Of a stretch of 45,163 nt of DNA, positions 3,215 through 42,963 are shown piece by piece. Position 1 is the stretch's first letter. Each line of letters opens with the position of its first letter. Both the position numbers and the translations under genes were made by a program. Source of the DNA: Synechococcus sp. (GTDB lineage: Bacteria > Cyanobacteriota > Cyanobacteriia > Thermostichales > PCC-7336); contig JBFRWN010000112.1 in NCBI GenBank assembly GCA_051439605.1, positions 1 through 45,163 on the forward strand, written 5' to 3'. The notes beneath the pieces are model-generated. The model saw only the letters and a list, made by a program, of their open reading frames with translations, was not told the DNA's origin and searched no databases.

Positions 3215-3997
3215 TTGAAGCGTTTAACTTGGACAGTTCCACCTCATCCCCTAATAGCCCTAAAAGATGAGTTGGTCCATGTATGGATGTTTGAACTGGA
3301 TTGTAACCTCCAAATTATTGTCCACCTGAAGAAATTCCTCAACCAAATGGAACAGCAAAAAGTAGAAAGATTCTATTTTACTCGGGATCGAAATTCTTAC
3401 GTGGTGGCGAGGGGACTATTGCGCCTGATTTTAGGATTGTATCTGGACGAATCTCCCGCAAATGTGAAATTTGACTATGGCGCTCAAGGAAAACCGGCGC
3501 TTGCAGAACAGCACATTTCCTCAATAAAATTCAATCTTTCACATTCGAAAAACATTGCCTTGTTTGCATTTAGCTGTAATCGTGACCTAGGTGTTGATGT
3601 CGAATATCATCGCTACTTATCGGACTGGCATGGCATCGCCAAACACTTTTTCGCACCTAGCGAACAGTCAGCCCTGAATAAAATACCCCCAGAGCATCAG
3701 CAACATGCTTTTTTTGACTGCTGGACTCGAAAAGAAGCCTTTATCAAAGCTCTGGGCGGAGGATTAAGTATTCCTCTCGACCAATTTGAAGTCTCTCTTG
3801 CTCCCAACCAACCTGCAAGCTTACTAAGCGTCGAAGGAAAAACGGAGAACTCCAAGCGCTGGAGCATGGTAGGACTCGACACTCAATCTGATTATTCAGC
3901 AGCACTCGTAGTGGAAGGTCCACCCCCCAAAATTCATACTTGGCTGACTTCGATTGAGTCACTACTGAGTCACTACTTCCGAGATCTGAGTAATTAG
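3215..3997 (+). CDS. Sfp-type 4'-phosphopantetheinyl transferase
   Basis: Motifs GKP, FNLSHS, LGVDVE and FFDCWTRKEAFIKALG; TTG start is uncertain. Confidence 0.93.
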   Translation: MKRLTWTVPPHPLIALKDELVHVWMFELDCNLQIIVHLKKFLNQMEQQKVERFYFTRDRNSYVVARGLLRLILGLYLDESPANVKFDYGAQGKPALAEQHISSIKFNLSHSKNIALFAFSCNRDLGVDVEYHRYLSDWHGIAKHFFAPSEQSALNKIPPEHQQHAFFDCWTRKEAFIKALGGGLSIPLDQFEVSLAPNQPASLLSVEGKTENSKRWSMVGLDTQSDYSAALVVEGPPPKIHTWLTSIESLLSHYFRDLSN

Positions 3998-4170
3998 GGT
4001 TGGCTGATTAAGTTTCAATCTATTGCTATTACTAGCTTTCAAGGCCATGAGGCAGGGGGCAAGTGCAAGGGAAATTGAAATAATCGCCCAAAAGCCTAGC
4101 ACCATCCATTCGCCATATACCGACGCATACCCCCCGGTCAGTTATCTTTTGTAGATTTCTACCTGCCCTT

Positions 4171-4852
4171 TAGAACTAATTTGTAAATTAAATCTTATGC
4201 TGCCATTCTGCGAGTCATGAGGCGAATTAAGGTCCCAAAAATCATCGCTTCACTCATTTCTGTGTACAACTCATAATCCTTGCTCAGTCGGCGAAATCGG
4301 TTCAGCCAGCCGAAAGTACGTTCCACAATCTAACGCTTCGGCATCATCTTGAACTCTTTGGCAGGGCGCCCAATCACTTCCATTCGTACCTGCTCTCCAC
4401 ACACTTGCTTCACTGCCTGGGCTAAACCTGTCGCCTGAATATCCTTGGTCAACCCACACCACCTTTAACCTGGACAGCTTGTGCGCTTCCTCCCCAAGCC
4501 CACCACTGCCCCCAATCGTTCGGAAGCATTGGCCTCACTTACCAACACCCCAATCAACAGTCCCTGCGAATCTACGACGATATGGCGCTTACGTCCCTTA
4601 ACTTTCTTGCCACCATCAAAACCGTAGATCTCTCCCTTTTTTCCGTTGTTTTCACCGATTGAGAATCGGCGATAGCAACGGCGGAGTCTGCTTGACGACC
4701 CATGCTCAGCCTGAGCTGATGTCGCAATTCGTCGTAAATCTGTTGCCAGATCCCTTTGCACTGCCACTTGCGAAAATAGCCATAGACGGTGGCATTGGGC
4801 GGCAAATCATGCGGTAACATTTCCCACTGGCATCCCGAGCGCTGGACGTAGA
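4171..4852 (-). mobile_element. IS5-family (IS1031-like) transposase remnant, 5'-truncated and inactivated
   Basis: Fragments YVQRSGCQWEMLPHDLP, DSQSVKTTEK, GFDGGKKVKGRKRHIVVDSQG, VWVDQGY and [11 protein letters not shown] (TGG to TAG at 4330-4332). A6G slippery site at 4634-4642, extra frameshifts, stop at 4195. Confidence 0.88.
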
Positions 4853-4903
4853 TATCTGCCCAAGTCCTCGCTCTATGTGTCTATCTAGAGCTTCTAGACA
4901 AAT

Positions 4904-5689
4904 TCAACCAGGAGGCAACCCCTCAACCAGTTGGAAGATAACGGAGCTAGTGATATCCTCAGCATCTTGAACTAGGGCAACCAGCTCGGTGGTCTGAGCC
5001 CAATAAATTGCTGTATCTGGTGCCGAGGTGCCCAGGTTGTAGGGGCCAACCGTAAATTGATATCGATCCTGACTGCCTGCTAAATACAACGTGTCTTCGC
5101 CGACTGTGAAATCGGTGATGCGGGCGTGTCCGTCGATGCTAGATGAAGATTGGGGACCATCCAGATAGAACACTGTGTCGTCGATGCCAAGGACAAAAGC
5201 ATCCTCACCAGCCCCGCCAGTTAAAACATCGATCTCGCCAATGCCGGGTTGCTCTGCCGACTGCTCGACACCAGTAAGAGAATCGTTGCCATCTTCACCA
5301 TTGAGCCAATCATTCCCACTACCCCCATGGAGGTCATCTTGACCGATACCGCTGACCAGATAATCGTTACCATCTTGTCCGTAAAGGAGATCGTCGTCAG
5401 ATAGACCGTAGATATCGATGTTGTACCCGCTATCAAGTTGGTCGTCGCCGTCACCACCATACAGTTCATCGTCGCCTGTGCTGCCGATGAGAACGTCATT
5501 ATCGGGACCGCCCTCAAGTATGTCGTTACCGAAACCGCCGTCAATGCGATCTTGTCCTTCCCGACCACTCAAACTGTCACTTTGAAAGTTGCCGGCCAGC
5601 GTGTCGTTGCCATCGCTGGCCGCAATCCTATCGACAGATGGGGTGCCGGGGAAAAAATTGGCAGAAGGTGGAACAGATGGAATAGCCAT
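4904..5689 (-). CDS. RTX / hemolysin-type Ca2+-binding repeat protein
   Basis: Many GGxGxDxL nonapeptides (GGFGNDIL, GGDGDDQL, GGSGNDWL), then EIDVLTGGAGEDAFVLG...ARITDFTVGED. ATG at 5689 is preferred over the ORF-track start at 5806. Confidence 0.85.
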   Translation of the reverse strand: MAIPSVPPSANFFPGTPSVDRIAASDGNDTLAGNFQSDSLSGREGQDRIDGGFGNDILEGGPDNDVLIGSTGDDELYGGDGDDQLDSGYNIDIYGLSDDDLLYGQDGNDYLVSGIGQDDLHGGSGNDWLNGEDGNDSLTGVEQSAEQPGIGEIDVLTGGAGEDAFVLGIDDTVFYLDGPQSSSSIDGHARITDFTVGEDTLYLAGSQDRYQFTVGPYNLGTSAPDTAIYWAQTTELVALVQDAEDITSSVIFQLVEGLPPG

Positions 5690-5893
5690 ATAACTTCTCA
5701 AGCCTCTAGCAACAATTTGAGAGACATACTCTGGTAATTGGGGAAAGTCAGAGGAGATTGCTGATGAATAATCAATTCTATACATGTGATACTCACTCAA
5801 TCCCAAATATAAGGAAGACAGTCGGTTACTAGCAGGCGCTAGCGATATTAAAACTGGGTCAAACTACTAATTTCTACAATTTCTAACTTCAAT

Positions 5894-7036
5894 CTAGCTG
5901 TGTTTGAGTTGCTTGTCTGTAAAGCCTATAACCAAGTCAATGGTGAAATCGTAGTTGTCGAAAATAAAGGAAAAGTCTGTACTGATTTGCTCGGATATCA
6001 GACCAAATTCGTCTAGCTGATTTACACGATGCTTGCGTTGGTAGTGCTTCTGAGATTCTGCCCGATCTGAAACTAGCGCTTTGAGGCGATTGCTCGGAGA
6101 TAGATCGGCAAATTTAATAATACTGTCGAAGACAGTTTGTAAGGAGGATCGCAACTCACCATACTGCACGATCTTAGTGTTTCTCTGCGTAATCTCTTGG
6201 CGTTCATTGAGCATATGGAAATAGCGATAGAGATCAATATCGTAGCGATAGCGGCGATGATAGTAGCGCTTAAGGATTTGAGGCGAAATCTGCTCAATCC
6301 CAGCCTTATTTTGGAGTGCAATGCGATCTAAGGAGAGGTGAGACGGAATTGTTTCGTGGGGCGATCGCAGAATATAAATGAATTTCGCGTCGGGAAAGAC
6401 GTCGAGCAAAGTTTTAATTCGGTGGGTGGAATAATGCGCTTGGGCGATCGCCCGACTGGTACCAGTGTAGTAAAGATGACGCTGAAGGCAGGCTTTGTAA
6501 AACTTGACCGATGCGTGACGACGAGCAGAGGATTGTCGGTCGTGGAATCTGAGTTCGGGGTACTCGCGGTCGTCAAACGCTAACGGCGACAGTAGGAGTA
6601 AAAATTGGGTATCGAGACGATAGAGAAATAGAAACTCGTCGTGTTCGATGCCATTAAGGTACAAACCGTGACCGCTTTCTTCGGGCATGATGGTGGTGCG
6701 ATTGGTGCGAATGAGCCAATTAATAATCGGCTTGATAAAGGCCCTAGCCGTAAGGGACGGAAATAATAAATGCCAGGTTTGAAAGGCAGCATACTCCTCA
6801 GTCTGCGTTAGCAGCCTGTGTAAGAAACTAGTTCCGCTTCTTGGATTACCAATGATGAATACTGGATTGTCGATTGGCTGCTGGCGATACTGTGGGAAAA
6901 ACAGGTTGTCTAACAGTAATGTGCAGCGAGTGAATCCGAGAAATACTGGCACCCCGATGAGCCATTGCAGCAACGTCCAACTGACCCCGTAGATTTTCCA
7001 ACATGCTTGCAGGATGTGGAAGTAGGTGGTGAGCAT
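5894..7036 (-). CDS. PAPS-dependent sulfotransferase (Sulfotransfer_3-like) with hydrophobic N-terminus
   Basis: 5'-PSB loop PVFIIGNPRSGTSFLHRLL and 3'-PB motif YILRSPHETIPS; ATG 7036 preceded by a GAGGA RBS. Confidence 0.9.
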   Translation of the reverse strand: MLTTYFHILQACWKIYGVSWTLLQWLIGVPVFLGFTRCTLLLDNLFFPQYRQQPIDNPVFIIGNPRSGTSFLHRLLTQTEEYAAFQTWHLLFPSLTARAFIKPIINWLIRTNRTTIMPEESGHGLYLNGIEHDEFLFLYRLDTQFLLLLSPLAFDDREYPELRFHDRQSSARRHASVKFYKACLQRHLYYTGTSRAIAQAHYSTHRIKTLLDVFPDAKFIYILRSPHETIPSHLSLDRIALQNKAGIEQISPQILKRYYHRRYRYDIDLYRYFHMLNERQEITQRNTKIVQYGELRSSLQTVFDSIIKFADLSPSNRLKALVSDRAESQKHYQRKHRVNQLDEFGLISEQISTDFSFIFDNYDFTIDLVIGFTDKQLKHS

Positions 7037-7141
7037 AACGATCCTCGAAAAACAGTAGTTGAGGGGTTGGTGTGCAAGGCTGAGCAAGTTTGGGGGGAAG
7101 ATTGATTGTCAACAGCAAGAAATTCTTTGTCACTGAGAACT

Positions 7142-8164
7142 TCATGACTCAGGCAATTCTGGAACGCGGCGAAGGTGAGGATGGAGTTGTCTTTGGAGTC
7201 GCAGCGAGCCGATATAGACCATGGCCGAGAATAGCGAGAGGCCAACAAGAAACACTGCAACTGAGAACCAGCCCAATTGAGGGGTAATTGGCAGGATCAG
7301 CAGCGCGACAGCAAACTGAATGACAATCGAGGTGAGTAACAACCTAACGACAAACATCTGGGAGCGGGTGGCAATGAAGCGGGCTCCCAAAGGAGCACCC
7401 ACCACCACCACTGGAATAGATACCCACCAGTAATTCCAGGTTTCGGGGGCAATGGAGGTTGAGCTGATGCCCAGCCGCCAAGCAAAACCAACCATGGCGT
7501 TGCCTGCCATAAGGATGACCGAGGTTGGCGTTGCTACCGTTTCGTCAATACGAAAGGCGAGCACCAGCAGGGAAAACGTGACAATATCGAGGCCACTTCC
7601 TGTTATGCCGCTGACCGAACCGCCGATGACGCCGATGCCAGCAAACAAAGCCGCATCCCAGCGCTCGAATGTATCGATTTGGCGATTAAGGGTTCGTTGG
7701 CGATCGCGATTCATCCACAGTAGCGCCACACCAAAGCTGAGCCAGAGGGTCACAAAGAATAATTTTGTCGCCACCGGCGGTAGGTTGGGAGCCAGGAGTT
7801 CGATGCCGATGCCGACGCCACATATCCCGCCCAGACTGGAAAAAAGCAATGCCCGTGGCTCGATGGGAATGCCACGCCAGAGAATAGCGATCGCCGCTGC
7901 GCTCATGCCCACGGACTGAATCATGAGCGAGAAATCTCGGGCCACTGCGGGGGGAATGTCGAATAGCAATGTCATCACCGGGAAGGCAACCGCTCCACCG
8001 CCCTCACTAGTGGACCCGGCGATAAACGAACCCACCGCCATCGTGACGGACATAAACCAGTTGTCGACAAACAGATGCCAGCGATGTCCGGCAGTCACGA
8101 ACACTAGCCAGATCGTCCAGACGGTAACGGGTACACACCAATCGCGAACGGGAATGTTTTTCAC
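7142..8164 (-). CDS. TauE/SafE-family (sulfite/organosulfur) membrane transporter
   Basis: Polytopic hydrophobic protein with the internally repeated GSFIAGSTSEGGGAVAFP and GGSVSGITGSGLD motifs. Confidence 0.82.
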   Translation of the reverse strand: MKNIPVRDWCVPVTVWTIWLVFVTAGHRWHLFVDNWFMSVTMAVGSFIAGSTSEGGGAVAFPVMTLLFDIPPAVARDFSLMIQSVGMSAAAIAILWRGIPIEPRALLFSSLGGICGVGIGIELLAPNLPPVATKLFFVTLWLSFGVALLWMNRDRQRTLNRQIDTFERWDAALFAGIGVIGGSVSGITGSGLDIVTFSLLVLAFRIDETVATPTSVILMAGNAMVGFAWRLGISSTSIAPETWNYWWVSIPVVVVGAPLGARFIATRSQMFVVRLLLTSIVIQFAVALLILPITPQLGWFSVAVFLVGLSLFSAMVYIGSLRLQRQLHPHLRRVPELPES

Positions 8165-8218: not shown

Positions 8219-9838
8219 TCAAAAATCGAGTTCGGGCTCGAGCGCCGCACAGCCTGGCAGGTGAGACAACCCTTTGAGCAGGGGATATCCGATCAGACCT
8301 CCCACACCCCAGACCAGTTGGAACAGCACGAAAAGAGAGGTTTCCGCCGGAGTTTTTAGCTTGTGGAGATGCAAGCCTTCGCGGGCGATGATATCTGGAG
8401 CGGCGGGATCGGCATAGGGACCGCTCAGCCGGAAATGAGGAGCTGCCACGGTGCCAAAAAGCACGCTCCACAACACTCTGGGCTTCAATAGCAGGTGACG
8501 CAGTACCGGACGGCAGCCGATCAGGTCGGCCAGCTCGTACATGTAGGGAACGAACGAGACGATGGATGAGACGCGATCGCACACGAGGGGTTTGAGTTGA
8601 GCGGTTCTGGCAGCATCGCGTGCGATGGCTGTCTGGAGGCGATCGCCCTCAGGTAAGCGCAACCGACCGCTGGCTACTCCGGCAAAATAGCGAGCTTGCA
8701 GTTCAGTTACTGGAGGCATCGCACCGATGTTGGGACGGGCGAAACCGACGAAGCCCATGTTGGGCAGGTCGGGGTGAAACACCTTTTTGTAGAGCTTGCC
8801 CCAGTCCCAACCGCGGCTCTCGATGGGAAGAAACGGGAAATAGACTTTGAAACCACTGGAGAAAATTACTGCGTCAGCCTTAGCTTCGCTGCCGTCTGTA
8901 AAGATGACGCCGGTCGGCGTACATTCCCGAATACCCGGTTTCAGCGTCACGTTGGGCTTGGTCAGGGTGGAAGTGAATACATCGGATTTCGTGATGAACT
9001 GCTGATGATAGCTACCGCCAGACAGTTCGATAAGATGTTGGCGCATTTGCCAAGCCGCTTTGTTGCGGTTGATGGCCGTAAACATCTGCTGAATGGCAGT
9101 TTCGATGCGGTAGTAAAAAACGGGCGGCAGGTGATAGGTGGCTCGATGGTGGAAGTAATCGCCCGGTAACGTCATGGTGTCGTCGAGCTTGGGCATGACG
9201 AACACCCCGCGTCTGAGGCTGAGTGTGGCAGTTGTTGCCACTTGAGAGACCTCGTGCAAAATATCTCCGCCACTTTCGCCACCGCCAACAACCACAACGT
9301 GTTTATCTCGATAGGGAGAGTTATCCTTGTACGACGACGAATGCACGAAATCCCCCTGAAAGCACTCGGCCCCGGGAATTGTCGGCAGGTTTCGTTCTTC
9401 GTTGAGGCCGGTGCAAACTGCCACAGCGTCGACGGTTTGACGAACAATGTGGCCTGACTGATTGAGCTGAAGCAGCCAGCGATTGCCCGTTCGCTCGATT
9501 GATTCGACTGCGGTGTTGAACTGAATGTGGCGCTTGAGATCGAAATGCTGAGCATACGCCAATAGATAGTCGAGGTACTGGCTGTGTTTGACAAAGTGAG
9601 GGTAATCCTCGGGTATGGGGAAGTCGGAAAAGGCGGTGAGGTATTTCGACGAGGTCAGTTCGGTGTTGCGAAATACGCTGATGCCGTTTTCTCTAAACTG
9701 CCAATTGCCGCCGATGGCATCAGACTGTTCGAAGGCCTGCACGTTCAGTCCTTCCTCTAAGCACGACTTAATGGTCGCGAGGCCCGCGAGACCGGCACCG
9801 ATAACAGCAACTGTTTTTTGAGGGGAAGTGGCTTGCAT
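8219..9838 (-). CDS. Class B flavin-containing monooxygenase (FMO-like)
   Basis: FAD-binding GAGLAG, FMO fingerprint FQGDFVHSSSY, NADPH-binding GGGESG, hydrophobic C-terminal helix. ATG 9838 avoids overlap with the upstream gene. Confidence 0.9.
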   Translation of the reverse strand: MQATSPQKTVAVIGAGLAGLATIKSCLEEGLNVQAFEQSDAIGGNWQFRENGISVFRNTELTSSKYLTAFSDFPIPEDYPHFVKHSQYLDYLLAYAQHFDLKRHIQFNTAVESIERTGNRWLLQLNQSGHIVRQTVDAVAVCTGLNEERNLPTIPGAECFQGDFVHSSSYKDNSPYRDKHVVVVGGGESGGDILHEVSQVATTATLSLRRGVFVMPKLDDTMTLPGDYFHHRATYHLPPVFYYRIETAIQQMFTAINRNKAAWQMRQHLIELSGGSYHQQFITKSDVFTSTLTKPNVTLKPGIRECTPTGVIFTDGSEAKADAVIFSSGFKVYFPFLPIESRGWDWGKLYKKVFHPDLPNMGFVGFARPNIGAMPPVTELQARYFAGVASGRLRLPEGDRLQTAIARDAARTAQLKPLVCDRVSSIVSFVPYMYELADLIGCRPVLRHLLLKPRVLWSVLFGTVAAPHFRLSGPYADPAAPDIIAREGLHLHKLKTPAETSLFVLFQLVWGVGGLIGYPLLKGLSHLPGCAALEPELDF

Positions 9839-9881
9839 GAGGATTAAACCCGGAAGACCCAGGGAGCTAAGACTCTGAGGA

Positions 9882-10484
9882 TTACGACTCTGAAGATACG
9901 GACAGTGAGAACCAGCCAAGGCGAGGCATGAGGCAAGGGCGATCGCCTAGAGCCGTGGCGTAGTTGGTGTCGGCACGTAAGGCTCGTTCTTCAGCAGGAA
10001 TGCGCTGACTCATCAGCCAGGCGTTGGCGAGGGTAAAGATAATCGCCGTCAGATAGGCGGTGTGAATCAGAGGCAGAGCAGCGATTTCGAGAATGACTCC
10101 CAACCAGTTTGGATGCCGCAGGTAGCGGTAAATGCCGGTGTTGACTGCTGAAGAATTGGGGATTGTAGTGATGGTGAGCGTCCAGCGATCTTTGAGCGCT
10201 CGCATAGAGAGATAGCGCAGCAGTTGACCGGCCAGTAAGAGAACGAAGGCGATCGCCCCCAAAGCTGGAATAAAGGGACGGTCGAGCACCCACACTTCAG
10301 CCAGCATGGCAATCCACCAACTGGTTTGCAGCAGCTTGACTGCCGGCAGCCAGTTATCCCCATGCTCTCGTGCTCTTTGGCTGAGCAATTTGGAAAGATG
10401 ACGCTGACTGATTCCCATCTCGACCAGTCGCTGCCCGATCACGGCAACGACGATACCTGTAAAAAGGACCTGAGTGGACATCAC
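9882..10484 (-). CDS. Isoprenylcysteine carboxyl methyltransferase-family membrane methyltransferase (SrsB/BpsB-like)
   Basis: QRLVEM, GIYRYLRHPNW and RIPAEERAL motifs; lies directly downstream of a type III PKS, as srsB and bpsB do. Confidence 0.88.
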   Translation of the reverse strand: MMSTQVLFTGIVVAVIGQRLVEMGISQRHLSKLLSQRAREHGDNWLPAVKLLQTSWWIAMLAEVWVLDRPFIPALGAIAFVLLLAGQLLRYLSMRALKDRWTLTITTIPNSSAVNTGIYRYLRHPNWLGVILEIAALPLIHTAYLTAIIFTLANAWLMSQRIPAEERALRADTNYATALGDRPCLMPRLGWFSLSVSSES

Positions 10485-10491
10485 GCACCGC

Positions 10492-11619: not shown

Positions 11620-11631
11620 GATGCTGCCTCG

Positions 11632-22454: not shown

Positions 22455-27298
<4,844 letters not shown>

Positions 27299-32120: not shown

Positions 32121-32162
32121 GTATCCCTAAATACAGATAGTCAATGTAATTTTAGGTAGCAT
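32121..32162 (+). promoter_or_regulatory. Canonical NtcA-activated promoter (GTA-N8-TAC-N22-TAN3T)
   Basis: GTATCCCTAAATAC at 32121-32134, a 22-nt spacer, then TAGCAT at 32157-32162, in the AT-rich divergent intergenic region and facing the FAAL. Confidence 0.6.
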
Positions 32163-35066: not shown

Positions 35067-35513
35067 GCTTTCCAGCGTTCGTTGGTGAAAACTATGCAAG
35101 TAGAGTTTCATGACCAAATACCTATAACTTCAACCTTCAATTATGGCAGGAAATATTATTTTGGATGCTCTGTAGTAAAGCGGTATAGTTTGACAAATAG
35201 ATTATTAGGATTCAGGACTATTTCTTTAGGCTGGGAGTATACTTTTTTGGAAGTGATTCTATGCAAAATAAGATTAACTAATACCGTTAAGCATTATAAG
35301 CAAGCAGGCTTATAATATTTATCGAGAAAAATAACTACTTAATCAAGTAAGATTTTCCTGATTAAATAGAGGAGATAAATCAGCATTCAAGAAAGCATCA
35401 ATTTTTGGTTCTATCAATCGAAAATATGCTTGGTATCTTGCCCCTTATCCGTCAGGTCAACAGTACCCTTTAGCGTCAATTTCCACACCCAAAATGCTCT
35501 GGAAGGCTTATTC

Positions 35514-36782
35514 GTGACTCAGTTGCAACCCAAACCGGATTTGGATCGCCAGCCTATTTCGACTGGGGGCTTGCCACACAAACCCCGACGGAGGTTGAAA
35601 GTGGCGAGTGCAATTGCGGTGGCGATCGCCGCTACAGGCATCGTCACATGGCAATTCCTAGACCAGCCTGAATCGGGGGTTCTGCCTGTGAGTGGACGGA
35701 TTGAAGGCTACGAAACGGATGTCAGTGCTAAAGTGGGCGGGCGCATTGGGTTCGTGGCCGTACGGGAAGGGGATGCGGTGAAGCAGGGGGAGCTACTCGT
35801 GCGTTTGGATGACGAAGAGGCGCAGGCGCAGTTGCGGGGATCAATGGCGCGGCTGACCGCTGCCAAACAGCAGGAGCGGCGATCGCAGCTTAACCTGGCT
35901 GTAATCGAGAGTCAGATCGAAGAAGTTCAGCTGATCGTGCGCCAATCCCAAGGCGATGCCGAGGGGCGAATTTTGCAGGCGGAGGGGCAACTGGCAGCGG
36001 CAGAGGCGGAATTAGTGGAAGCAAACGCACAGGTGGAAGCAGCGCAGGCGGATTTGAAATTGGCCAAGGCAGATCGCGAACGGCTTGCCCAGTTGCTAAA
36101 AGAAGGTGCCATCCCCCAGCAGCAGTTCGACCAAGTCCAGGCTCGTTTAGAGACGGAAAAGGCAGCGTTACAGGCTCGCGAGGCAATTGTCATTGCTGCT
36201 CGCCAACAAGTGGATGCGGCTCGCGGGGCATTGGGGCAGGCCAGAACTTCCGCTTTGAATCCTGACATTCGCACAGCTCAACTGGCGGCTTTGCAAACGC
36301 AACTGCTCCGGGCTGAGGCCGAGGTGGAGGCAGCCCGAGCGGATGTGGTTAACGCCCGCGCTGCTCGAGAGGAGATTGAAGCCCGTCTCGATTTCTTGCA
36401 CGTTGTGAGTCCCATCGATGGTGTGACACTGGCTCGCATGGTGGAACCGGCCGAAGTGGTCGGTGTGGGCACGGCTCTACTGTCACTGGTGAACCTAGAT
36501 ACTGTTTACATGAGGGGTTACATCCCGGAAGGGGATATCGGCAGGGTGCGGGTGGGTCAGGCCGCCAGGGTGTTTTTGGATTCAGCCCCCGATCGCCCCC
36601 TCAGTGCCCGCGTGATTGCGATCGATCCCGAAGCATCGTTTACGCCAGAAAACATCTACTTTCGAGATGATCGCGTCAATCAAGTATTTGGTTTGAGGAT
36701 CGGCATTGACAATCCGGAGGGGTTTGCAAAACCGGGCATGCCCGCTGATGCAGAAATTCTCATCGGCGAATCCGAACCATGA
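35514..36782 (+). CDS. HlyD-family membrane fusion protein (YbhG-like)
   Basis: N-terminal TM helix, VSGRIEG, long coiled coil, EASFTPENIY, AKPGMPADA. GTG 35514 has a GGAAGG RBS (ORF-track start 35430). Confidence 0.9.
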   Translation: MTQLQPKPDLDRQPISTGGLPHKPRRRLKVASAIAVAIAATGIVTWQFLDQPESGVLPVSGRIEGYETDVSAKVGGRIGFVAVREGDAVKQGELLVRLDDEEAQAQLRGSMARLTAAKQQERRSQLNLAVIESQIEEVQLIVRQSQGDAEGRILQAEGQLAAAEAELVEANAQVEAAQADLKLAKADRERLAQLLKEGAIPQQQFDQVQARLETEKAALQAREAIVIAARQQVDAARGALGQARTSALNPDIRTAQLAALQTQLLRAEAEVEAARADVVNARAAREEIEARLDFLHVVSPIDGVTLARMVEPAEVVGVGTALLSLVNLDTVYMRGYIPEGDIGRVRVGQAARVFLDSAPDRPLSARVIAIDPEASFTPENIYFRDDRVNQVFGLRIGIDNPEGFAKPGMPADAEILIGESEP

Positions 36783-38770
36783 GTATGGAAAAAGTGGGTT
36801 CGAGATCGGGGTTGAACGGTCATCAGACAGCGACTGGGCTTCTCAATGCAATCGCCGTCAAAGGACTCTCCAAACGTTATGGCCAGTTCGTCGCCGTGGC
36901 AGGACTCGACTTCGCGGTTCGGCCAGGGGAAATCTTCGGTCTGATCGGTCCTGACGGGGCGGGCAAGACGACAACCTTTCAGATTTTGGCCGGGGTGATG
37001 GAAGCCACGGCGGGGGAGGTGAGGGTTCTGGGACGAGTGCCGAGGGAGGCGCGACTGGACATCGGCTATATGACACAGCAGTTTTCTCTCTATATAGACC
37101 TCAGCGTGGACGAAAACCTGCGGTACGTGGCAGGACTGCGGCAAGTAGCTGCCGATGCCTTTGCGGAACGCCGCCGCAAGTACTTGCAGCTCGTGGGACT
37201 GGAGCCATTTAGTGATCGCCTCGCCGGGAATCTGTCCGGCGGTATGCGGCAGAAACTCGCTCTCTGCTGTGCCTCGATCTCGCAACCGCAGGTGTTGTTG
37301 CTGGACGAACCGACGACAGGCGTTGACCCCGTCTCCCGGCGGGAGTTTTGGGACATGTTGGGGGCCCTCGCCTCGGAAGGCATGACGATTGTTGTGGCAA
37401 CTCCCTATCTGGATGAAGCCGAGCGCTGCCATCGCATTGCCCTGATGTATGGCGGGCAGATTCAGCAGCTAGGAACGCTGCCAGAGTTGCGATCGCGTCT
37501 TGGGTTGGAACGGCTAGAGGTCCGAGCCTCCGACATTGCAGCAGCAGAACTGGTGTTGAGAACCGCCCCTCCGTCCAAACTTCAGCCAGGGGCGCGTTCT
37601 GCAGTGGCTTTGGCCGACATTCAGTCGTTTGGCGATCGCCTCGACATCTTGGTTGAAGACGCTGCTGTTGCACAACCGCACATCCACGCGCTGCTGAGGC
37701 GACATGGGCTCAAACCGCAGTCCATCCAAACGGTACCCCCAACCCTCGAAAACGTTTTCGTCAGTCACTTGCGCCAGCAAAGGTCGGAACCTCCGTACAT
37801 TCCCTTCGATCGCCAAAAGCCAGGAGGCAATCGGCAGTCCGATGCGATCGCCATTGGCGCGCAAAAACTGTACAAGACCTTCGGCAGCTTCCCCGCAGTG
37901 AAAGGGATCGATCTGGACATTCGCTACGGTGAGATTTATGGCTTGCTAGGAGCGAACGGTGCAGGCAAAACGACCACGATTAAAATGCTGTGCGGGCTTC
38001 TCGTGCCCACCAGCGGCGATATCTGCCTGGCTGGCGAACGAGGGGACTTGCGCCGCCAAGCCGTGCGGCAGCGGATTGGCTACATGAGCCAGAAATTTAC
38101 CCTCTACGACGATTTGACAATTGGCGAAAATCTGGAGTTTTACAGCGGCGTTTACGGCATTCCAAGACGGTTTCGCAAGGACCGGATTGCATGGGTTTTA
38201 GAAACCTGCGGGCTGGTCGGTCGCGAGCATTTGCTAACGGGTCGGTTGCCGGGGGGGTGGAAGCAACGGGTGGCGTTTGGCGCTGCGGTGATGCACGAGC
38301 CGGACATTCTGTTCCTGGACGAGCCTACTTCTGGCGTAGACCCGCTAGCGCGTCGCCAGTTCTGGCGGTCGATCGAGGACTTTGCCCGTCAGGGAACGGC
38401 GGTGCTGGTGACCACCCACTACCTAGAGGAAGCGGAGCACTGCCAGCGGATTGGGCTGATGGTGGCTGGAGCCATCGTAGCTGCGGGTTCGCCCAGCGAG
38501 ATTAAGGGATCGCAGCCAGGACAGATGCTGGAGGTGGTTGTCGATCGCCCGCTCAAGGCTTCGACAGTCCTGAAGTCGTGGATGGCCCCCTGGCAAGTCT
38601 CGATTTTCGGCGATCGCCTCCATCTCGTTCTCGACAATCCGGAACGAGACCTGCCACCTCTGCAAGCGGCTCTCCGGTCAGCGCAATTGGACCTGCATTC
38701 GGTGCGATCGATTCCGTTCTCGCTCGAAGACGCTTTTATTGGCATCGTGCAGCGGACTGAGGTTGGGTAG
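36779..38770 (+). CDS. Double-domain ABC transporter ATPase (YbhF-like)
   Basis: Two Walker A motifs (GPDGAGKTT, GANGAGKTT), signatures LSGGM and LPGGW, Walker B LLLDEPT and LFLDEPT. Confidence 0.95.
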   Translation: MSMEKVGSRSGLNGHQTATGLLNAIAVKGLSKRYGQFVAVAGLDFAVRPGEIFGLIGPDGAGKTTTFQILAGVMEATAGEVRVLGRVPREARLDIGYMTQQFSLYIDLSVDENLRYVAGLRQVAADAFAERRRKYLQLVGLEPFSDRLAGNLSGGMRQKLALCCASISQPQVLLLDEPTTGVDPVSRREFWDMLGALASEGMTIVVATPYLDEAERCHRIALMYGGQIQQLGTLPELRSRLGLERLEVRASDIAAAELVLRTAPPSKLQPGARSAVALADIQSFGDRLDILVEDAAVAQPHIHALLRRHGLKPQSIQTVPPTLENVFVSHLRQQRSEPPYIPFDRQKPGGNRQSDAIAIGAQKLYKTFGSFPAVKGIDLDIRYGEIYGLLGANGAGKTTTIKMLCGLLVPTSGDICLAGERGDLRRQAVRQRIGYMSQKFTLYDDLTIGENLEFYSGVYGIPRRFRKDRIAWVLETCGLVGREHLLTGRLPGGWKQRVAFGAAVMHEPDILFLDEPTSGVDPLARRQFWRSIEDFARQGTAVLVTTHYLEEAEHCQRIGLMVAGAIVAAGSPSEIKGSQPGQMLEVVVDRPLKASTVLKSWMAPWQVSIFGDRLHLVLDNPERDLPPLQAALRSAQLDLHSVRSIPFSLEDAFIGIVQRTEVG

Positions 38771-39883
38771 ATGGTCGGTCGTCGCATTTGGACTCAGTGT
38801 GTTAAGGAGCTGAAGCAATTTCAGCGCGATCGCCTTACCCTCGCTCTGGCGTTTGTGCTGCCGTTAGCCATGCTGCTAATCTTCGGCTACGCTATCCGCC
38901 TGGAAGCGAAAAACATTCCGCTGGCGATCCAAGATTTCGATCGCAGTCCCCTCAGCCGCGCCTACATCGAGCGTCTCTTTGCCACTAATCAGTTTCAGCC
39001 GGCGGCCTGGCCTAGCGAGGGGAGTCCGATTGAGCCGATCGATCGAGGGGTGGCTAAAGCAATAGTTGTGATTCCCCCCGAATTTTCCCGCCGGATTGCG
39101 TCGGAGCGATCCCTCCCCCTCCAGGTGCTGGTGGATGGGACAGATGTAAACAACGCTCGCGTGATTCGCGAAAGTGTGCGAGCGACGACAAATTTCTTTT
39201 TGCGCGATCGCGGCCTGCAATCCGAACCCCAACGCATCGTCCCTCGCACTCGCCTCTGGTTCAATCCCGGTCGCAAAGAATCTCTGTACATTGCGCCAGG
39301 AGTTTATGCCGTAATTTTAGCCATCTTTCCGTCCCTACTGGCTGCTGTAGCCATGGTGCGAGAGCAGGAAAAGGGAACGATTGTGCAGGTTTACGCCTCC
39401 AGTTTGACTGCAGCAGAATTACTGCTGGGGAAGGGATTGGCTTACTTCTTGATTGCCGTAGGAGAAACGGCGATCGTGATGGGTAGTGGCTCGCTGCTAT
39501 TTCGGCTGCGATTGGCGGGAGATCCCACGCCCCTATTGCTGGGCACCCCTCTGTTTTTATCTGCGGGGGTTGCCTACGGTCTCTTTATCGGCGTTCGCGC
39601 CCGAAACCAAGATGCTGCGGTTCAGATCGTTGCCCTGACGGGATTTCTGACTTCGCTCCTGCTGTCGGGCTTTATCTATCCCCTCAGCAACATTCCCTTT
39701 CCCCTCTCTGCCATCTCCAATATCGTTCCAGCCCGCTACTTTATTGTTTTGACTCGGGATGCTTTCATACGGGGAACGGGCTGGCTGGGCGTTTGGTTTG
39801 CCCCCATCATGCTGGCAGTTTTGGCGGGTACGTTTTTTGCAGCGGGCTGGCGCGTTTTGCGGCGCATGCAGCTAAGGGAGTAA
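38771..39883 (+). CDS. ABC-2 type permease (YbhS-like)
   Basis: KELKQFQRDR, LWFNPG, VREQEKGT and multiple TM helices. Confidence 0.92.
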   Translation: MVGRRIWTQCVKELKQFQRDRLTLALAFVLPLAMLLIFGYAIRLEAKNIPLAIQDFDRSPLSRAYIERLFATNQFQPAAWPSEGSPIEPIDRGVAKAIVVIPPEFSRRIASERSLPLQVLVDGTDVNNARVIRESVRATTNFFLRDRGLQSEPQRIVPRTRLWFNPGRKESLYIAPGVYAVILAIFPSLLAAVAMVREQEKGTIVQVYASSLTAAELLLGKGLAYFLIAVGETAIVMGSGSLLFRLRLAGDPTPLLLGTPLFLSAGVAYGLFIGVRARNQDAAVQIVALTGFLTSLLLSGFIYPLSNIPFPLSAISNIVPARYFIVLTRDAFIRGTGWLGVWFAPIMLAVLAGTFFAAGWRVLRRMQLRE

Positions 39884-39886
39884 GTC

Positions 39887-41017
39887 ATGCTGAACGTTCT
39901 GGCAAATCTGTTTGAAAGTCGGTTTTGGGCTTTGGCTCAAAAAGAGTTGGGTCAAATTTTCAAGAACCGGCAACTGCTCCTACTGCTGATTGTGCCGCCT
40001 ACCATTCAGCTGTTGATCTACGGGTTTGCCCTCAATCCTGAGGTTCAGAACCTCCGGCTGGGGATTGTTGATTATGACAATACCGCCGCCAGTCGAGAGC
40101 TAGTGTCGAGCTTCACGGAAAATCGCGTGTTTCTGGCCAAGCGCTATAGCGGCAGTCAGCAGGAAGTTGGCAATCTGGTGCGGACCGGACAGATCGACGT
40201 GGGTCTGGCGATTCCACCGGACTTCAATCGCGATCTGATTGGGGGCAAGACGGCGGAAGTGCAGGTCTTAATTGATGGTGTCGATGCCAACACAGCTGGA
40301 ATTGCCAATGGATATGTGGCGCAGATTGTCGAGCAGTACAGTCGTCAGCTGGATGGCATTCGCGCCCCCCCTTTAGTCGAACCGCAGGTGACATTTCTCT
40401 ACAACCCCGGATTGAGGAGCAGTTGGTTTTTTGTGCCGGGGATGATTGGCGTTGTAGTGACGCTGATTAGTTCGTTGGTGTCTGCCTCCGCCGTGATTCG
40501 CGAGAAGGATACGGGCACGCTGGAACAGCTATTGATGACCCCAGCTTCGGCAGTTGAGATTATCTCGGCTAAAATCGTGCCGCTTTTCGTGCTGTTGATG
40601 GGGGATGTGGGGTTGGCGGTGGGTGTGGGGCGGTGGGTGTTCGACGTGCCCTTTCGCGGCCACCTGTTTCTATTTATGGCACTCTCGAGCCTCTATCTGT
40701 TTGTCGGCATCGGGATTGGCACAATGTTGGCGACGTTGGCTCAAAATCAACAGCAGGTGATGCTGAGTTCGTTTTTCATCAACGTGCCTCTGATTCAGCT
40801 GTCGGGGGCGGTTGCGCCGGTTGAAAGTATGCCTGCTTTTTTTCGCTATTTGTCGCAGTGGTTGAATCCCTTGCTGCATTACGTGGTGATTCTGCGCGGC
40901 ATCATGTTGAAGGGGGTAGGAATAGACGTGCTTTGGCCCCACGCGCTGTTTATGGCTGTGTTTGCTATCATTCTTCTCTCCATTAGTATTAGTCGGTTGA
41001 ACGATCGGCTCGGCTGA
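39887..41017 (+). CDS. ABC-2 type permease (YbhR-like)
   Basis: FLYNPGLRSSWFFVPG, IREKDTGTLEQLLMTP and multiple TM helices. Confidence 0.92.
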   Translation: MLNVLANLFESRFWALAQKELGQIFKNRQLLLLLIVPPTIQLLIYGFALNPEVQNLRLGIVDYDNTAASRELVSSFTENRVFLAKRYSGSQQEVGNLVRTGQIDVGLAIPPDFNRDLIGGKTAEVQVLIDGVDANTAGIANGYVAQIVEQYSRQLDGIRAPPLVEPQVTFLYNPGLRSSWFFVPGMIGVVVTLISSLVSASAVIREKDTGTLEQLLMTPASAVEIISAKIVPLFVLLMGDVGLAVGVGRWVFDVPFRGHLFLFMALSSLYLFVGIGIGTMLATLAQNQQQVMLSSFFINVPLIQLSGAVAPVESMPAFFRYLSQWLNPLLHYVVILRGIMLKGVGIDVLWPHALFMAVFAIILLSISISRLNDRLG

Positions 41018-41125
41018 GGTTTTAGGATGTGAGGGAGGGCGATCGCAATTTTAGGGCTGGTTCAATCTGGAGTTACGGTTCGAGAGGCGTTTCCATAGAA
41101 AATCAGCAATCTTTCCGTGTGATTT

Positions 41126-41204
41126 GCGATCGCTCACTACAGCCATCACATGGTGGTTGACATTATCCTGTTTTGTTACACCAAATTGCCCAGGTTTGAA
41201 CCAT
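41126..41204 (+). repeat. Degenerate copy of the IS right end found at 43759-43838
   Basis: Hand alignment gives about 60/80 identities, including ACAGCCATCA, AAATTGCC and terminal TTTGAACCAT. Confidence 0.7.
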
Positions 41205-41211
41205 GACCCAT

Positions 41212-42963
41212 TTAAGCAACAAAGTCCTGCAGGGCTAGGTCAGTTGACAGCTGAGCCACCCACGGATCGTACGATCCAGCATTGCCGGAACCTAAAGAGC
41301 CATCTGTAAATCCAGCGACAAAAATACTGTCTGGCCCAATGGCAATACCTTGCGATCGGTCGTCTCCTGCCGAGCCAAACTGAACCGTATTGAGAATGTT
41401 GCCATCACTATCCAGTTGGGCTATCCAGGCATCGTCCTCCCCGGCTGACGAGCCGTCGGCTAATGTACCGCTGGTATAGCCAGTCACCAGTATGTTGTCG
41501 TCTTCATTTACCTCGATGCCAAACGGCGTGTCGGTGCCCGTACTGCCAAACTGTTGGACCCAGAGCTGGTCGCCGTCGGGCTCGTACTTGGCTACCCAGG
41601 CATCGTATTCGCCAGCATTACTACCGCCCAAGTCGCCTAATGTGAATCCTGTTGCGTAAACGTTGCCCTCACTATCAGTAGCCGTACCGTAGGCAAAGTC
41701 GTAGTCCCCAGTGCCGAGCTGCTCAATCCACAGCTGATTTCCGTCACTGTCGAATTTTGCTATCCAGGCATCGTACAGACCAGCGTTGGTGCCCCCCAAA
41801 TCGCCAATCGTCCATCCTGTAGCGATGACGTTGTTATCTAGGTCTGTAGCAGTACCGAAGAGTTCGTCAAATGTGTCAGTGCCAAACTGTTGGGTCCAGA
41901 TTTGGTTGCCACTATTATCGAACTTGACAAGAAATGGGTCGGTTTCACCTTCATTTGTACCGCCCAAGCTACCTTGCGTATAGCCACCTAAGACAACGTT
42001 ATCGGCACTGTCTATCGATAAGCTGCCTTCGAATGTGTTGTCGAGGCTTTCTGTTCCAATTTGATCGATAAACATTTGATTGCCATCGCTATCAAATTTT
42101 GCAATCCAGGCATCATTTCCTCCTTCATTTTCGCCGCCTAAATCACCACTGGTGACTCCAGAAACAAAAACTTCCCCATTACTATCAATTGCCACACTAA
42201 AATTAGTTTCTGACTCGGGAGTACCGAATTGTTGGATAAAATTTAAACTTCCACTGCTGTTGTATTGAGCAATCCAAGCATCATTACCTCCTTCATTCTC
42301 GCTGCCCAGCTCTCCAGATGTTCCACCTACAATCGTGACATTACCTTCGCTGTCAGCAGCCACGTCAAAGGCAAAATCGGCTCCGGGCGAACCTATCTGC
42401 TGAACCAATGCCACTTCTGCTTCTGAAGGAGGCGGTTCGCTAACGTATTCGAAATAGTCTGCTGTGAGGCTGAGATCTGAGTCACCTGCAATAACGGAAA
42501 TAAGATCGTTTCCTTCGTTTCTAAATAAGACGGAAAATGATGCCCCTAAGAATGGAATATTGATTTCTCTGAGTCTGTAGTCATCAGAGCTACCATTCAG
42601 CCGAATTATGTCTGCATCACTATTGAAATCTGCAACAATAGCAAAATCTAGCAGGCTCGCTTCTGCATAGTAGGGATTCAGGCCATCACCCAAAACAAAT
42701 AAATCTGCATCGGGAGCAACCGTAGTTCCCAAGCCATCAAAAGCTTCGATTGGTTCAGCCGGACCACCAATTAATACATCAATTTGGAGATCGCCAGCAT
42801 TATTACCAATCTCACCAGGATCGACGCCTAACAACACGTCGTCGCCAGTTCGCCCCAGAATAATATCGTTGCCTGCAGATTGGAAAATAATGTCGTTGCC
42901 AGGTGTTCGCGCAGTGAGGTTGAAAAAACTAAGAATGATAGAAATTAGCTCTTCAGGAAACAT
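41212..42963 (-). CDS. CylK/BrtB-like protein: N-terminal RTX-like Ca2+ domain plus 7-bladed SBBP beta-propeller (putative alkyl-halide alkylating enzyme)
   Basis: IILGRTGDDVLLGVDPG, DLFVLGDGLNPYY, DLSLTADYFEY, seven Q(F/I/L)G(S/T) blade repeats including GTGDYDFAY, C-terminal NAGSYDPW...QDF. ATG 42963 has a GAGGAG RBS. Confidence 0.8.
   Translation of the reverse strand: MFPEELISIILSFFNLTARTPGNDIIFQSAGNDIILGRTGDDVLLGVDPGEIGNNAGDLQIDVLIGGPAEPIEAFDGLGTTVAPDADLFVLGDGLNPYYAEASLLDFAIVADFNSDADIIRLNGSSDDYRLREINIPFLGASFSVLFRNEGNDLISVIAGDSDLSLTADYFEYVSEPPPSEAEVALVQQIGSPGADFAFDVAADSEGNVTIVGGTSGELGSENEGGNDAWIAQYNSSGSLNFIQQFGTPESETNFSVAIDSNGEVFVSGVTSGDLGGENEGGNDAWIAKFDSDGNQMFIDQIGTESLDNTFEGSLSIDSADNVVLGGYTQGSLGGTNEGETDPFLVKFDNSGNQIWTQQFGTDTFDELFGTATDLDNNVIATGWTIGDLGGTNAGLYDAWIAKFDSDGNQLWIEQLGTGDYDFAYGTATDSEGNVYATGFTLGDLGGSNAGEYDAWVAKYEPDGDQLWVQQFGSTGTDTPFGIEVNEDDNILVTGYTSGTLADGSSAGEDDAWIAQLDSDGNILNTVQFGSAGDDRSQGIAIGPDSIFVAGFTDGSLGSGNAGSYDPWVAQLSTDLALQDFVA

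Follow-up and report, generated by a model that had tools for sequence, protein, structure and literature searches.

The window analyzed in this study is the whole of contig C112 (JBFRWN010000112.1; 45,163 bp) of the Synechococcus sp. assembly GCA_051439605.1, a genome bin of 4.9 Mb in 143 contigs with a completeness of 99.98% and a contamination of 4.12%. It carries a putative biosynthetic gene cluster, in which polyketide synthases (PKSs) of types I and III occur together with homologs of the halogenase CylC and of CylK, an enzyme that utilizes alkyl halides. The list of open reading frames (ORFs) and Pfam/NCBIfam searches delimited a 13-gene operon on the minus strand, running from position 31306 to 4904, with further genes on both sides. 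The features of the cluster are as follows.

3215-3997, plus strand: Sfp/HetI-type 4'-phosphopantetheinyl transferase (PPTase); Pfam ACPS (5.6e-21) and AASDHPPT_N, NCBIfam HetI 5e-63 (under the cut-off)
4904-5806, minus strand: RTX-repeat protein of 300 aa, the last gene of the operon; Pfam HemolysinCabind, 1.5e-24
5894-7087, minus strand: sulfotransferase of the type using 3'-phosphoadenosine-5'-phosphosulfate (PAPS); Pfam Sulfotransfer_3, 1e-18
7142-8164, minus strand: TauE/SafE-family anion transporter; Pfam TauE, 4.8e-21; about 7 hydrophobic segments in a hydropathy scan
8219-9919 (gene call P0241 from 9838), minus strand: membrane-anchored class B flavin monooxygenase (FMO); Pfam FMO-like, 6e-88
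9882-10484, minus strand: ICMT-family membrane methyltransferase (CylJ/MerF-type); Pfam ICMT, 8.5e-25
10492-11619, minus strand: CylI-type type III PKS; CylI in the PDB (8YSP), E = 2.6e-148
11632-15699, minus strand: type I PKS module 3, ketosynthase (KS)-acyltransferase (AT)-acyl carrier protein (ACP)-thioesterase (TE); Pfam and motifs
15699-22454, minus strand: type I PKS module 2, KS-AT-dehydratase (DH)-enoylreductase (ER)-ketoreductase (KR)-ACP, fully reducing; Pfam and motifs
22451-27298, minus strand: type I PKS module 1, KS-AT-KR-ACP with the KS at the very start; Pfam and motifs
27418-28830, minus strand: CylC-type dimetal-carboxylate halogenase; motifs QERYH and HLQDEAFH
28889-29152, minus strand: stand-alone ACP of 87 aa; Pfam PP-binding, 1.5e-13; motif GLDS
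29285-30283, minus strand: membrane fatty-acyl desaturase 2; Pfam FA_desaturase, 8.9e-23; HRLFSH, HRRHH, HNNHH
30332-31306, minus strand: membrane fatty-acyl desaturase 1; Pfam FA_desaturase, 3.5e-19; HRLLSH, HRRHH, HNNHH
31307-32407, no strand: AT-rich intergenic region separating the divergent operon and FAAL gene; 37% GC versus 55.8% in the operon; no ORF of at least 100 aa
32408-34345, plus strand: fatty acyl-AMP ligase (FAAL); Pfam AMP-binding, 3.2e-68; NCBIfam fatty-acid--AMP ligase models, 1e-116 to 1e-142 (under their cut-offs)
34779-35066, plus strand: small conserved ORF of 95 aa; no Pfam/NCBIfam match
35430-41017, plus strand: exporter genes in total, overlapping or abutting one another; Pfam HlyD_3, ABC_tran twice, ABC2_membrane_3 twice
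35430-36782, plus strand: HlyD adaptor; Pfam HlyD_3
36779-38770, plus strand: ABC ATPase with two nucleotide-binding domains; Pfam ABC_tran twice
38771-39883 and 39887-41017, plus strand: ABC-2 permeases; Pfam ABC2_membrane_3 twice
41212-42975 (gene call from 42963), minus strand: CylK-family alkyl-halide-utilizing enzyme; CylK in the PDB (7FH6/7RON), E of about 1e-124

Neighboring genes in the operon are separated by gaps of 1-132 bp or overlap by 1-4 bp. The single exception is the nominal overlap of 38 bp between the ICMT and FMO genes, which vanishes with the gene-call start of the FMO (P0241). All of the 22 ORFs scanned were intact. The genes listed in an earlier note on this DNA turned out to be real, intact ORFs at or near the positions given there, including the divergent FAAL, the ABC exporter, the PPTase, and the CylK-like gene; the RTX gene (4904-5806) and the ORF at 34779-35066 were missing from that list. 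The same note had read a cyl-type logic (FAAL/ACP/CylC/type I PKS/CylI/CylK) that lacks the β-branching cassette but is extended by desaturases, an FMO, and a sulfotransferase, and this reading was borne out. No member of the HMG-CoA synthase or enoyl-CoA hydratase (ECH) families was found among the 22 ORFs scanned, and a β-branch of the HMG-CoA synthase type was dropped from consideration as the genes are absent. No component of nonribosomal peptide synthetases was found in the cluster. With the type III PKS matching CylI at E = 2.6e-148 and a β-propeller protein matching CylK at an E of about 1e-124, the gene set is far beyond what chance would bring together.

The catalytic motifs of the assembly line are well preserved. 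All three KS domains keep the Cys/His/His residues (ETACSSS in module 1), and all three AT domains bear GHSVG and HAFH, the latter being a malonyl signature. The KR of module 1 possesses the catalytic YAAAN motif but not LDD, while module 2 possesses the DH His, YGP and DxxxQ, GGVG in the ER, and both LDD and YAAAN in the KR. In module 3, we found DTACSSS, HGTGT, GHSVG, HAFH, and GLDS, followed by GHSLG in the TE. Pfam detected no methyltransferase domain in any of the three type I PKSs, and the C-methyltransferase feature of the mer type is thus lacking. The type III PKS retains the Cys (GCMG), His (HPGG), and Asn (GNMSS) of the triad, and the CylI match in the PDB (8YSP) is followed at a great distance by Pks11 (3e-60). 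In the phylogeny, this enzyme was placed within the CylI-like cyanobacterial clade (support 98/96) and grouped with those of Cylindrospermum NIES-4074, a Chroococcales metagenome-assembled genome (MAG), and J06635_1; the sister of this group was the pair of Nostoc DedVER02 and Calothrix NIES-4105. QERYH and HLQDEAFH in the CylC homolog fit QExxH and HxxDExxH, which are conserved across 241 CylC homologs according to the available part of PMC12101540. With regard to the ferritin-like diiron fold (a four-helix bundle) of this enzyme type, the homolog scored 21 bits against Pfam AurF (under the cut-off of 29.6) and had no sequence match in the PDB, and an AlphaFold2 model based on 7 sequences was all-helical with a mean pLDDT (the per-residue confidence score) of only 52.6. 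Overall, the catalytic motifs are intact in the KS, AT, KR, DH, ER, and TE domains, the type III PKS, the CylC homolog, and the His boxes of the desaturases.

The tailoring genes begin directly after the type III PKS. SrsB and BpsB are presumably ICMT-type enzymes as well. The earlier note counted an SrsB-type methyltransferase among the additions to the cyl set, but this does not hold, as 10 of the 13 CylI-like loci described below have an ICMT after the type III PKS and MerF of the merocyclophane cluster is also annotated as an ICMT (PMC11264947). The FMO carries the motif FQGDFVHSSSYK, which fits the FxGxxxHxxxYK signature of PF00743, and a C-terminal hydrophobic segment (residues 529-548), and its closest solved relative is an ancestral FMO5 (6SEK, 1.7e-75). 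The enzyme behind the hydroxylation proposed earlier is a class B FMO and not a class A flavoprotein of the SrsC/HidB type. The latter was rejected, since the oxygenase of the cluster is FMO-like (PF00743) and no class A enzyme was found in the window; among the relatives, class A (FAD_binding_3) genes were found only in L011 and G452. The sulfotransferase scored 68.8 bits against a cut-off of 27 (Sulfotransfer_3) and retains the PAPS-binding loop GNPRSGTS; its best match in the PDB was 2Z6V (7.7e-9), and the matches in a protein atlas were sulfotransferase clusters at 0.98. An APS kinase gene resides on another contig (C82) of the host genome. The cluster had been called self-contained, and this is nearly so, except that the supply of PAPS requires that APS kinase.

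Relatives of the cluster were sought with two enzymes. The type III PKS search of genome contigs yielded 101 relatives, of which the best 80 were kept. The 23 proteins of the window were mapped on the 13 loci with a type III PKS of at least 49% identity, the other 67 being non-cyanobacterial and at most 40% identical. Besides the ICMT, the 13 loci contained CylK homologs in seven cases, a sulfotransferase (46-52%) in five (four Moorena and the MAG J06635_1), and an FMO in one (J06635_1), while TauE and desaturases were found in none of the 13. The ICMT ortholog (55-61%) follows the type III PKS in L009, L011-L017, and L055. With the CylC homolog as a single-sequence query, no relative was recovered from metagenome contigs, whereas a scan with an alignment of 7 homologs recovered 263, of which the best 80 were kept. 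As the retrieved flanks were at most 10 kb, long clusters are seen in part. The contents of these 80 CylC loci were as follows.

ACP: 69/80
FAAL: 56/80
CylK: 9/80
Desaturase: 3/80
Type III PKS, ICMT, FMO, and TauE together: 2/80 (L131 and L169)
Sulfotransferase: 0/80 (within 10-kb flanks)

The CylC of the window is 44-67% identical to the homologs that follow an ACP in the 69 loci, and orthologs of its FAAL (53-62%) adjoin ACP-CylC in the 56 loci. Furthermore, three genomes, which belong to a cyanobacterial family other than that of the window, possess the block in the following orders (identities to the window in parentheses; T3PKS, type III PKS; MFS, major facilitator superfamily transporter).

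G464: FAAL-ACP-CylC-PKS(TE)-T3PKS(71%)-P450-PhyH-ICMT(60%)-FMO(70%)-FMO-TauE(69%)-sulfotransferase(54%)-CylK(49%)
G452: FAAL-ACP-CylC-CylC-PKS-T3PKS(66%)-ICMT-FMO(70%)-TauE(70%)-sulfotransferase(55%)-class A hydroxylase-sulfotransferase-CylK-MFS-CylK-CylK
G446: CylC-PKS-T3PKS(67%)-P450-PhyH-ICMT-FMO-TauE-sulfotransferase-CylK-MFS-sulfotransferase-CylK

In the metagenome contigs L169 and L131, the same order is seen up to TauE, where the retrieved DNA ends. Orthologs of TauE (69-72%) lie between the FMO and the sulfotransferase in the three sister genomes and after the FMO in the two contigs, and those of the sulfotransferase (52-55%) occupy the same position in G464, G452, and G446. P450 and PhyH genes are inserted between the type III PKS and the ICMT in two of the three sister genomes (G464 and G446). 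The FMO family is tight, with about 31 protein clusters at 64-70% identity before the values fall to 32-38%. Contigs of the same lengths recur among several of the FMO relatives and the closest relatives of the CylK homolog. Sampling of 401 cyanobacterial genomes recovered this FMO type in 1, namely that of the window (0 of the 400 others), and the family of G441 has it in 3 of 61 genomes. With the FMO type being this rare, its co-occurrence with the cluster is not a background association. CylK homologs at E ≤ 1e-100 were likewise found in only one other genome among the 400 sampled. The gene combination had been called unfamiliar in the earlier note, but it is not a one-off: the order from the type III PKS through ICMT, FMO, TauE, and sulfotransferase to CylK recurs in three genomes (54-71% identity) and, up to TauE, on two contigs. 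Thus, the cluster belongs to a family that is conserved but orphan, recurring in few other cyanobacteria with no product described in the literature searched. By its gene content, the window represents a variant of this family with a desaturase pair resembling JamABC and two PKS modules added.

The sister clusters (G464, G452, G446, and L169/L131) share with the window the FAAL-to-CylK order at 44-71% identity and a Glu-type CylK pocket (RNFEY in G464; see below). In contrast to the window, they possess a single PKS module and lack desaturases, an RTX gene at the operon end, and the HlyD/ABC-2 exporter; additional genes that vary between them encode a further CylC, P450 together with a PhyH dioxygenase, a class A hydroxylase, another sulfotransferase, and an MFS transporter, and CylK is present in up to three copies. 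Specific to the window are PKS modules 1 and 2 and the desaturase pair, together with the genes for the RTX protein and the ABC-2 exporter. The nearest named relatives of the FMO (P0242) and of the CylK homolog (P0137) are both labeled Pleurocapsa sp. PCC 7319 in NCBI.

The CylK homolog aligned with chain residues 75-571 and 552-655 of 667 in 7FH6_A (E = 7.1e-125, HMMER), covering both the N-terminal Ca2+-binding domain and the C-terminal β-propeller that define the family, and the CylC gene lies 12.4 kb away on the same contig. In CylK, Arg105 and Tyr473 bind chloride while Asp440 and Glu374 hold the resorcinol, and the D440N change abolishes the activity (PMC8916777, available part). We described the pocket by the residues at the sites Arg105/Glu374/Leu438/Asp440/Tyr473, with the Cylindrospermum stagnale homolog P0215 as a ruler, whose local sequence agrees with that of CylK around each of the five residues in the HMMER output. 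Read in this way, the homolog of the window is RNFEY and P0215 is RELDY. The halide site is kept (Arg105 as R38 and Tyr473 as Y397, invariant in the alignment), but Asp440 is replaced by Glu and Glu374 by Asn, so that the nucleophile site departs from that of CylK sensu stricto. Among the 120 closest homologs, Arg and Tyr were kept in 105, RNFEY was the commonest pattern (18), and Glu374 plus Asp440 occurred in 10. All nine homologs from type III PKS clusters with a sulfotransferase (the window, G464, J06635_1, three in G452, two in G446, and Moorena) possess Glu at 440 and no Glu at 374, and two of them bear Arg at 374, the BrtB arrangement. On the other hand, RELDY is found in the four homologs of cyclophane-like clusters, those of C. 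stagnale, Nostoc DedVER02, Calothrix NIES-4105, and Xenococcaceae, and the homolog of NIES-4074 is RKFDY. BrtB has Glu and Arg at the Asp440 and Glu374 sites (PMC8916777, available part), and the ether-forming NglO has Glu428 and a C-terminal RTX domain, as far as PMC10849952 was accessible. Since Glu and Asn replace Asp440 and Glu374, dimerization as in paracyclophanes is not to be assumed, and the dimerization like cylindrocyclophane put forward in the earlier note is just one option.

Altogether, we consider it probable that the window carries an intact cluster of the cylindrocyclophane/merocyclophane lineage and belongs to an uncharacterized sub-family marked by ICMT-FMO-TauE-sulfotransferase together with one or more CylK homologs. 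The product should be a chlorinated, unsaturated, methylated, and sulfated phenolic lipid. In the pathway proposed here, the functions of the genes are taken from homology, and the order and substrates of the steps are inferred. The FAAL would load a free fatty acid onto the 87-aa ACP, where the chain would be unsaturated by the two desaturases, with a triple bond as one possibility, and chlorinated at an unactivated carbon by the CylC homolog. The three malonyl-specific modules would each add C2, leaving a β-hydroxyl (module 1), a fully reduced unit (module 2), and a β-keto thioester (module 3). The CylI-type enzyme would then add two malonyl units and, by cyclization and aromatization, give a 5-alkylresorcinol with the side chain ring-CH2-CH2-CH2-CH(OH)-(rest of the fatty acid, with Cl and unsaturation). 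The hydroxyl at side-chain carbon 4 is placed there by the carbon bookkeeping of cylindrocyclophane. The ICMT-type enzyme would O-methylate the ring and the FMO would oxygenate it, and sulfation of a hydroxyl would draw on PAPS produced elsewhere in the genome. TauE may move a sulfur oxyanion or the sulfated product, the CylK homolog would take the alkyl chloride as an electrophile with displacement of chloride, and the ABC-2 system would export the product. For the CylK step, we tentatively prefer an oxygen nucleophile (a side-chain or ring hydroxyl), with an ether as the result, over C-C dimerization, because the Glu of the O-alkylating enzymes BrtB and NglO is found at the Asp440 site; this preference falls somewhat short of an even chance. 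As a bolder extension, which we regard as distinctly unlikely, the sub-family with FMO-TauE-sulfotransferase and CylK might use cryptic chlorination for an undescribed CylK bond formation, such as O-alkylation to ethers, oligomers, or macrocycles, and the window with two desaturases might be the first blueprint of an acetylenic (nostocyclyne-type) cyclophane.

Several points weigh against this interpretation. The CylK homolog, the PPTase, and the exporter lie outside the operon, and the GC content of the CylK gene (47.8%) is under that of the operon core (55.8%). The source is a metagenome-assembled bin with a contamination of 4.12%. The Glu-for-Asp argument rests on two characterized enzymes, the pocket change could just fit a methylated or sulfated resorcinol that still reacts via carbon, and the CylK homologs counted above are kin, so that the counts are not independent. 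In L131 and L169, the DNA stops before the position of the sulfotransferase. Aromatic-ring hydroxylation by an FMO-type enzyme is unusual, and a Baeyer-Villiger reaction or some other oxygenation would be an alternative for it; the function given to TauE is a guess.

If the CylK homolog performed two Friedel-Crafts C-C alkylations joining two chlorinated alkylresorcinols, the product would be a true paracyclophane, decorated with methyl and sulfate and having longer bridges, made up of three carbons from the PKSs and those of the fatty acid as far as the chlorinated carbon. Such an outcome agrees with the full cyl-type set (FAAL, ACP, CylC, TE-ended type I PKS, CylI-type PKS, ICMT, and CylK), with Arg105/Tyr473 being kept, and with the type III PKS being sister to the enzymes of cyclophane-like clusters. 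Nevertheless, we regard it as unlikely: the two residues replaced in the window are those that hold the resorcinol in CylK, which D440N inactivates (PMC8916777, available part), the Glu374/Asp440 pair occurs in 4/4 cyclophane-like homologs but in 0/9 of the sulfotransferase type, and earlier O-methylation or sulfation would lower the nucleophilicity of the ring.

It is also rather improbable that the CylK homolog, and perhaps the exporter, is idle and that the product is a linear, still chlorinated, sulfated, and methylated alkylresorcinol like cylindrofridins or sulfatostatins. CylC clusters commonly yield end products that are chlorinated (PMC8406957), sulfated alkylresorcinols exist in Streptomyces (PMC12135136, available part), and the CylK gene of the window, 10 kb from the operon and of lower GC, has its own transcript. 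However, G464, G452 (three copies), and G446 (two copies) all have CylK homologs in synteny with the tailoring block, the window carries both the sole CylK homolog and the sole ACP-linked CylC found in the genome, and about 80% of CylC/CylK pairs are co-localized (PMC8916777, available part).

The desaturases bear on another possibility, in which the resorcinol or a hydroxyl attacks the mid-chain chloride of its own molecule and the alkyne is supplied by the desaturases, yielding a nostocyclyne-like acetylenic cyclophane. The two enzymes are 51% identical and were placed in different subclades of the tree, well apart from the three other desaturases of the host genome. Desaturase 2 grouped with that of L155, a locus with the order FAAL-Des-ACP-CylC-PKS. 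FAAL-desaturase-ACP cassettes with one to four desaturases occur in six other cyanobacterial genomes, and a desaturase and CylC share one ACP cassette in 3 of the 80 metagenome loci. In the JamABC logic, an acyl-activating enzyme, a desaturase, and a dedicated ACP act together (PMC10088813, available part). The window likewise possesses an acyl-activating enzyme, membrane desaturases with three His boxes (Δ9-type in JamABC of jamaicamide), and a dedicated ACP feeding the PKS. Unlike JamABC, it has two desaturases from different subclades and a chlorinase on the same ACP. The desaturases may give an alkene or an alkyne. To our knowledge, nostocyclyne bears no sulfate, which counts against the intramolecular closure, as does its source, a terrestrial Nostoc bloom, when the DNA of the window occurs in marine sediment metagenome runs (two studies). 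No RNA run was listed with this sequence, and one of the metagenomes may be the source of the DNA. Triple-bond formation by the desaturases is an assumption. Desaturases, CylC, CylI, and CylK were found together only in the window (0/13 CylI-like, 0/80 CylC, and 0/3 sister loci), though other combined clusters may exist beyond the 10-kb flanks. Nostocyclyne A is proposed to need CylC, CylK, and CylI homologs plus an internal alkyne-forming activity, with no producer or cluster known according to the accessible part of PMC6836626, and we found no nostocyclyne cluster in the literature searched. In sum, we hold this closure to be very unlikely. The weakest explanation, an assembly or binning chimera or decaying mobile-element cargo that is silent in the host, is extremely improbable, as all 22 ORFs are intact with the catalytic motifs kept, independent genomes share the gene order, the relaxase and PPTase have paralogs (89% and 76%) on other contigs of the bin, and a 93% identical desaturase lies on another public contig. 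In favor of this explanation, the source is a metagenome bin, a TrwC relaxase, pieces of IS4/5, and a copy of IS1 are present on the contig, and no CylC homolog was found in the three same-genus genomes.

Our literature search found no link between a matching cluster and a product, in agreement with the view in the earlier note that this is not a characterized pathway, albeit the supplementary figures of PMC8406957 may show sister clusters; the available part of that paper reports 13 type III PKS clusters with CylC, some in Pleurocapsales. Only hierridins and [7.7]paracyclophanes are recorded as characterized products of cyanobacterial type III PKSs in PMC8086630. The closest known systems are the cyl and mer clusters, which share with the window a FAAL and a free ACP, CylC-type chlorination on the ACP, a TE-ended type I PKS, a CylI-type resorcinol synthase, an ICMT-type methyltransferase (CylJ/MerF), and the Arg/Tyr halide site of the CylK family. 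In contrast to the window, cyl possesses the HMG-CoA synthase/ECH cassette and mer a C-methyltransferase domain in the first PKS (PMC6836626, available part). Both have two modules, whereas the window has three, along with two desaturases, an FMO, TauE, a sulfotransferase, and an RTX protein, and both have Asp440/Glu374 in CylK where the window has Glu/Asn. NglO (nostochloroside) and BrtB (bartoloside), compared by residues and context, share the Arg/Tyr halide site, Glu at the Asp440 position, and a CylC partner with the window. Their clusters lack a type III PKS, the RTX domain is fused in NglO but a separate gene in the window, and the Glu374 site is Arg in BrtB versus Asn in the window. 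The orphan PmNT3/MKS cluster of Microcystis, compared by its description, resembles the window in having an ICMT and an FMO-like gene but lacks CylC and CylK, and no sulfotransferase, TauE, or desaturases are reported for it in the available part of PMC11264947. For sulfatostatin (adp) of Streptomyces davaonensis, the available part of PMC12135136 describes an alkylresorcinol made by a type III PKS and O-sulfated by a PAPS-dependent sulfotransferase from the same cluster; by the same description, adp differs in lacking a type I PKS, a halogenase, and CylK and in having its own PAPS cassette, when the APS kinase lies elsewhere in the genome of the window. The Srs/Hid alkylresorcinol operons use a class A FAD-dependent hydroxylase, in the place of which the window has an FMO.

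There is a demand for CylC and CylK enzymes as biocatalysts that chlorinate C-H bonds selectively and alkylate with alkyl halides, and we know of only three reactivities of CylK enzymes (C-C, ester, and ether). The co-variation of the CylK pocket with the sulfation/oxygenation block points to an unstudied substrate class and perhaps bond type, and with this family the few known products of cyanobacterial type III PKSs would be joined by phenolic lipids that are sulfated and halogen-derived. If Pleurocapsa sp. PCC 7319 carries a sister cluster, the family could be tested by halide-depletion metabolomics despite the uncultured source of the window.

Some of the relatives deserve a description of their own. 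The marine MAG J06635_1 (G042:C5; L109, L110, L105, and L106) contains a longer assembly line, in which FAAL-ACP-CylC is followed by modules that are alternately KR-only and fully reducing and then by genes for a sulfotransferase-like protein and a CylK homolog, with a T3PKS-ICMT-sulfotransferase-FMO block on a separate contig. In the type III PKS cluster of Moorena bouillonii PNG5-198 (L102 13148-14293, L103 14652-16331, and L104), a CylK homolog (47%) and a shortened CylC-like ORF are located about 9.5 kb and about 30 kb upstream, respectively. Among the clades nearest to the paracyclophane producers, the CylC/CylK pair was stated to occur only in NIES-4074 in the available part of PMC6836626, a review of 2019; unlike that statement, we found CylK homologs in Moorena loci too. 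Outside the small cyanobacterial family, the nearest relatives of the FMO in the search were vertebrate FMO5-like proteins (32-38%) and not other bacterial FMOs. P0275, a 48% identical FMO relative of 839 aa, is fused to a Sulfotransfer_1 domain, which ties oxygenation to sulfation, though the domain is of another sulfotransferase subfamily than that of the window.

The RTX protein at the end of the operon shares 31% identity with the C-terminal RTX domain that P0169, the CylK homolog of Nostoc DedVER02, carries as a fusion, and RTX-like genes adjoin CylK homologs in L012, L017, and L114. Its C-terminal third shows a weak likeness to the N-terminal Ca2+-binding domain of CylK, with Glu at the Arg105 site. 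In G452, an ORF of 1209 aa (L195 3961-7590; G452:C229) comprises two tandem CylK-like units with the patterns RAPEY and RRYEY, and the third CylK homolog of this genome lies 1.4 kb from it. The 95-aa ORF has a 62% homolog between FAAL and ACP-CylC in the same-family genome G005 (L090 19692-19958) and is possibly a cluster-linked regulator.

The host genome contained no second homolog of the type III PKS, CylK, or FAAL and no second close homolog of the sulfotransferase. A second, distant CylC-like ORF (G000:C16:25449-26558; 407 aa, 31-38% identical) was detected, and the CylC of the cluster is the sole ACP-linked one. The PPTase has its 76% paralog on contig C68. A CylC homolog was present in 10 of 41 relatives, with the genome of the window counted, and the GC content of the operon (55.8%) compares with 51.3% in the genome. 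A megablast search of PLSDB plasmids gave no match to 24.9 kb of the operon, and the Rfam, tRNA, and inverted-repeat scans of the window gave only PKS-module and propeller repeats. From the relaxase and insertion sequence (IS) setting, the GC content, and the patchy occurrence of CylC among relatives, we regard the cluster as accessory and probably mobile, and the contig itself possibly represents a plasmid or belongs to an integrative element. A 643-aa ORF with a TrwC-type relaxase and an AAA_30 helicase part occupies the contig start (120-2051, minus strand), with paralogs in the same bin on C13 (89%) and, partial, on C34, C104, and C9 (48-55%). Broken transposase fragments of the IS4/5 family lie between the PPTase and the operon end (4195-4820, minus strand), and an IS1-type transposase lies at the right contig end (44456-45162, minus strand). 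Next to it is a Uma2-family ORF (44072-44614), in which the family match is restricted to residues 15-123.

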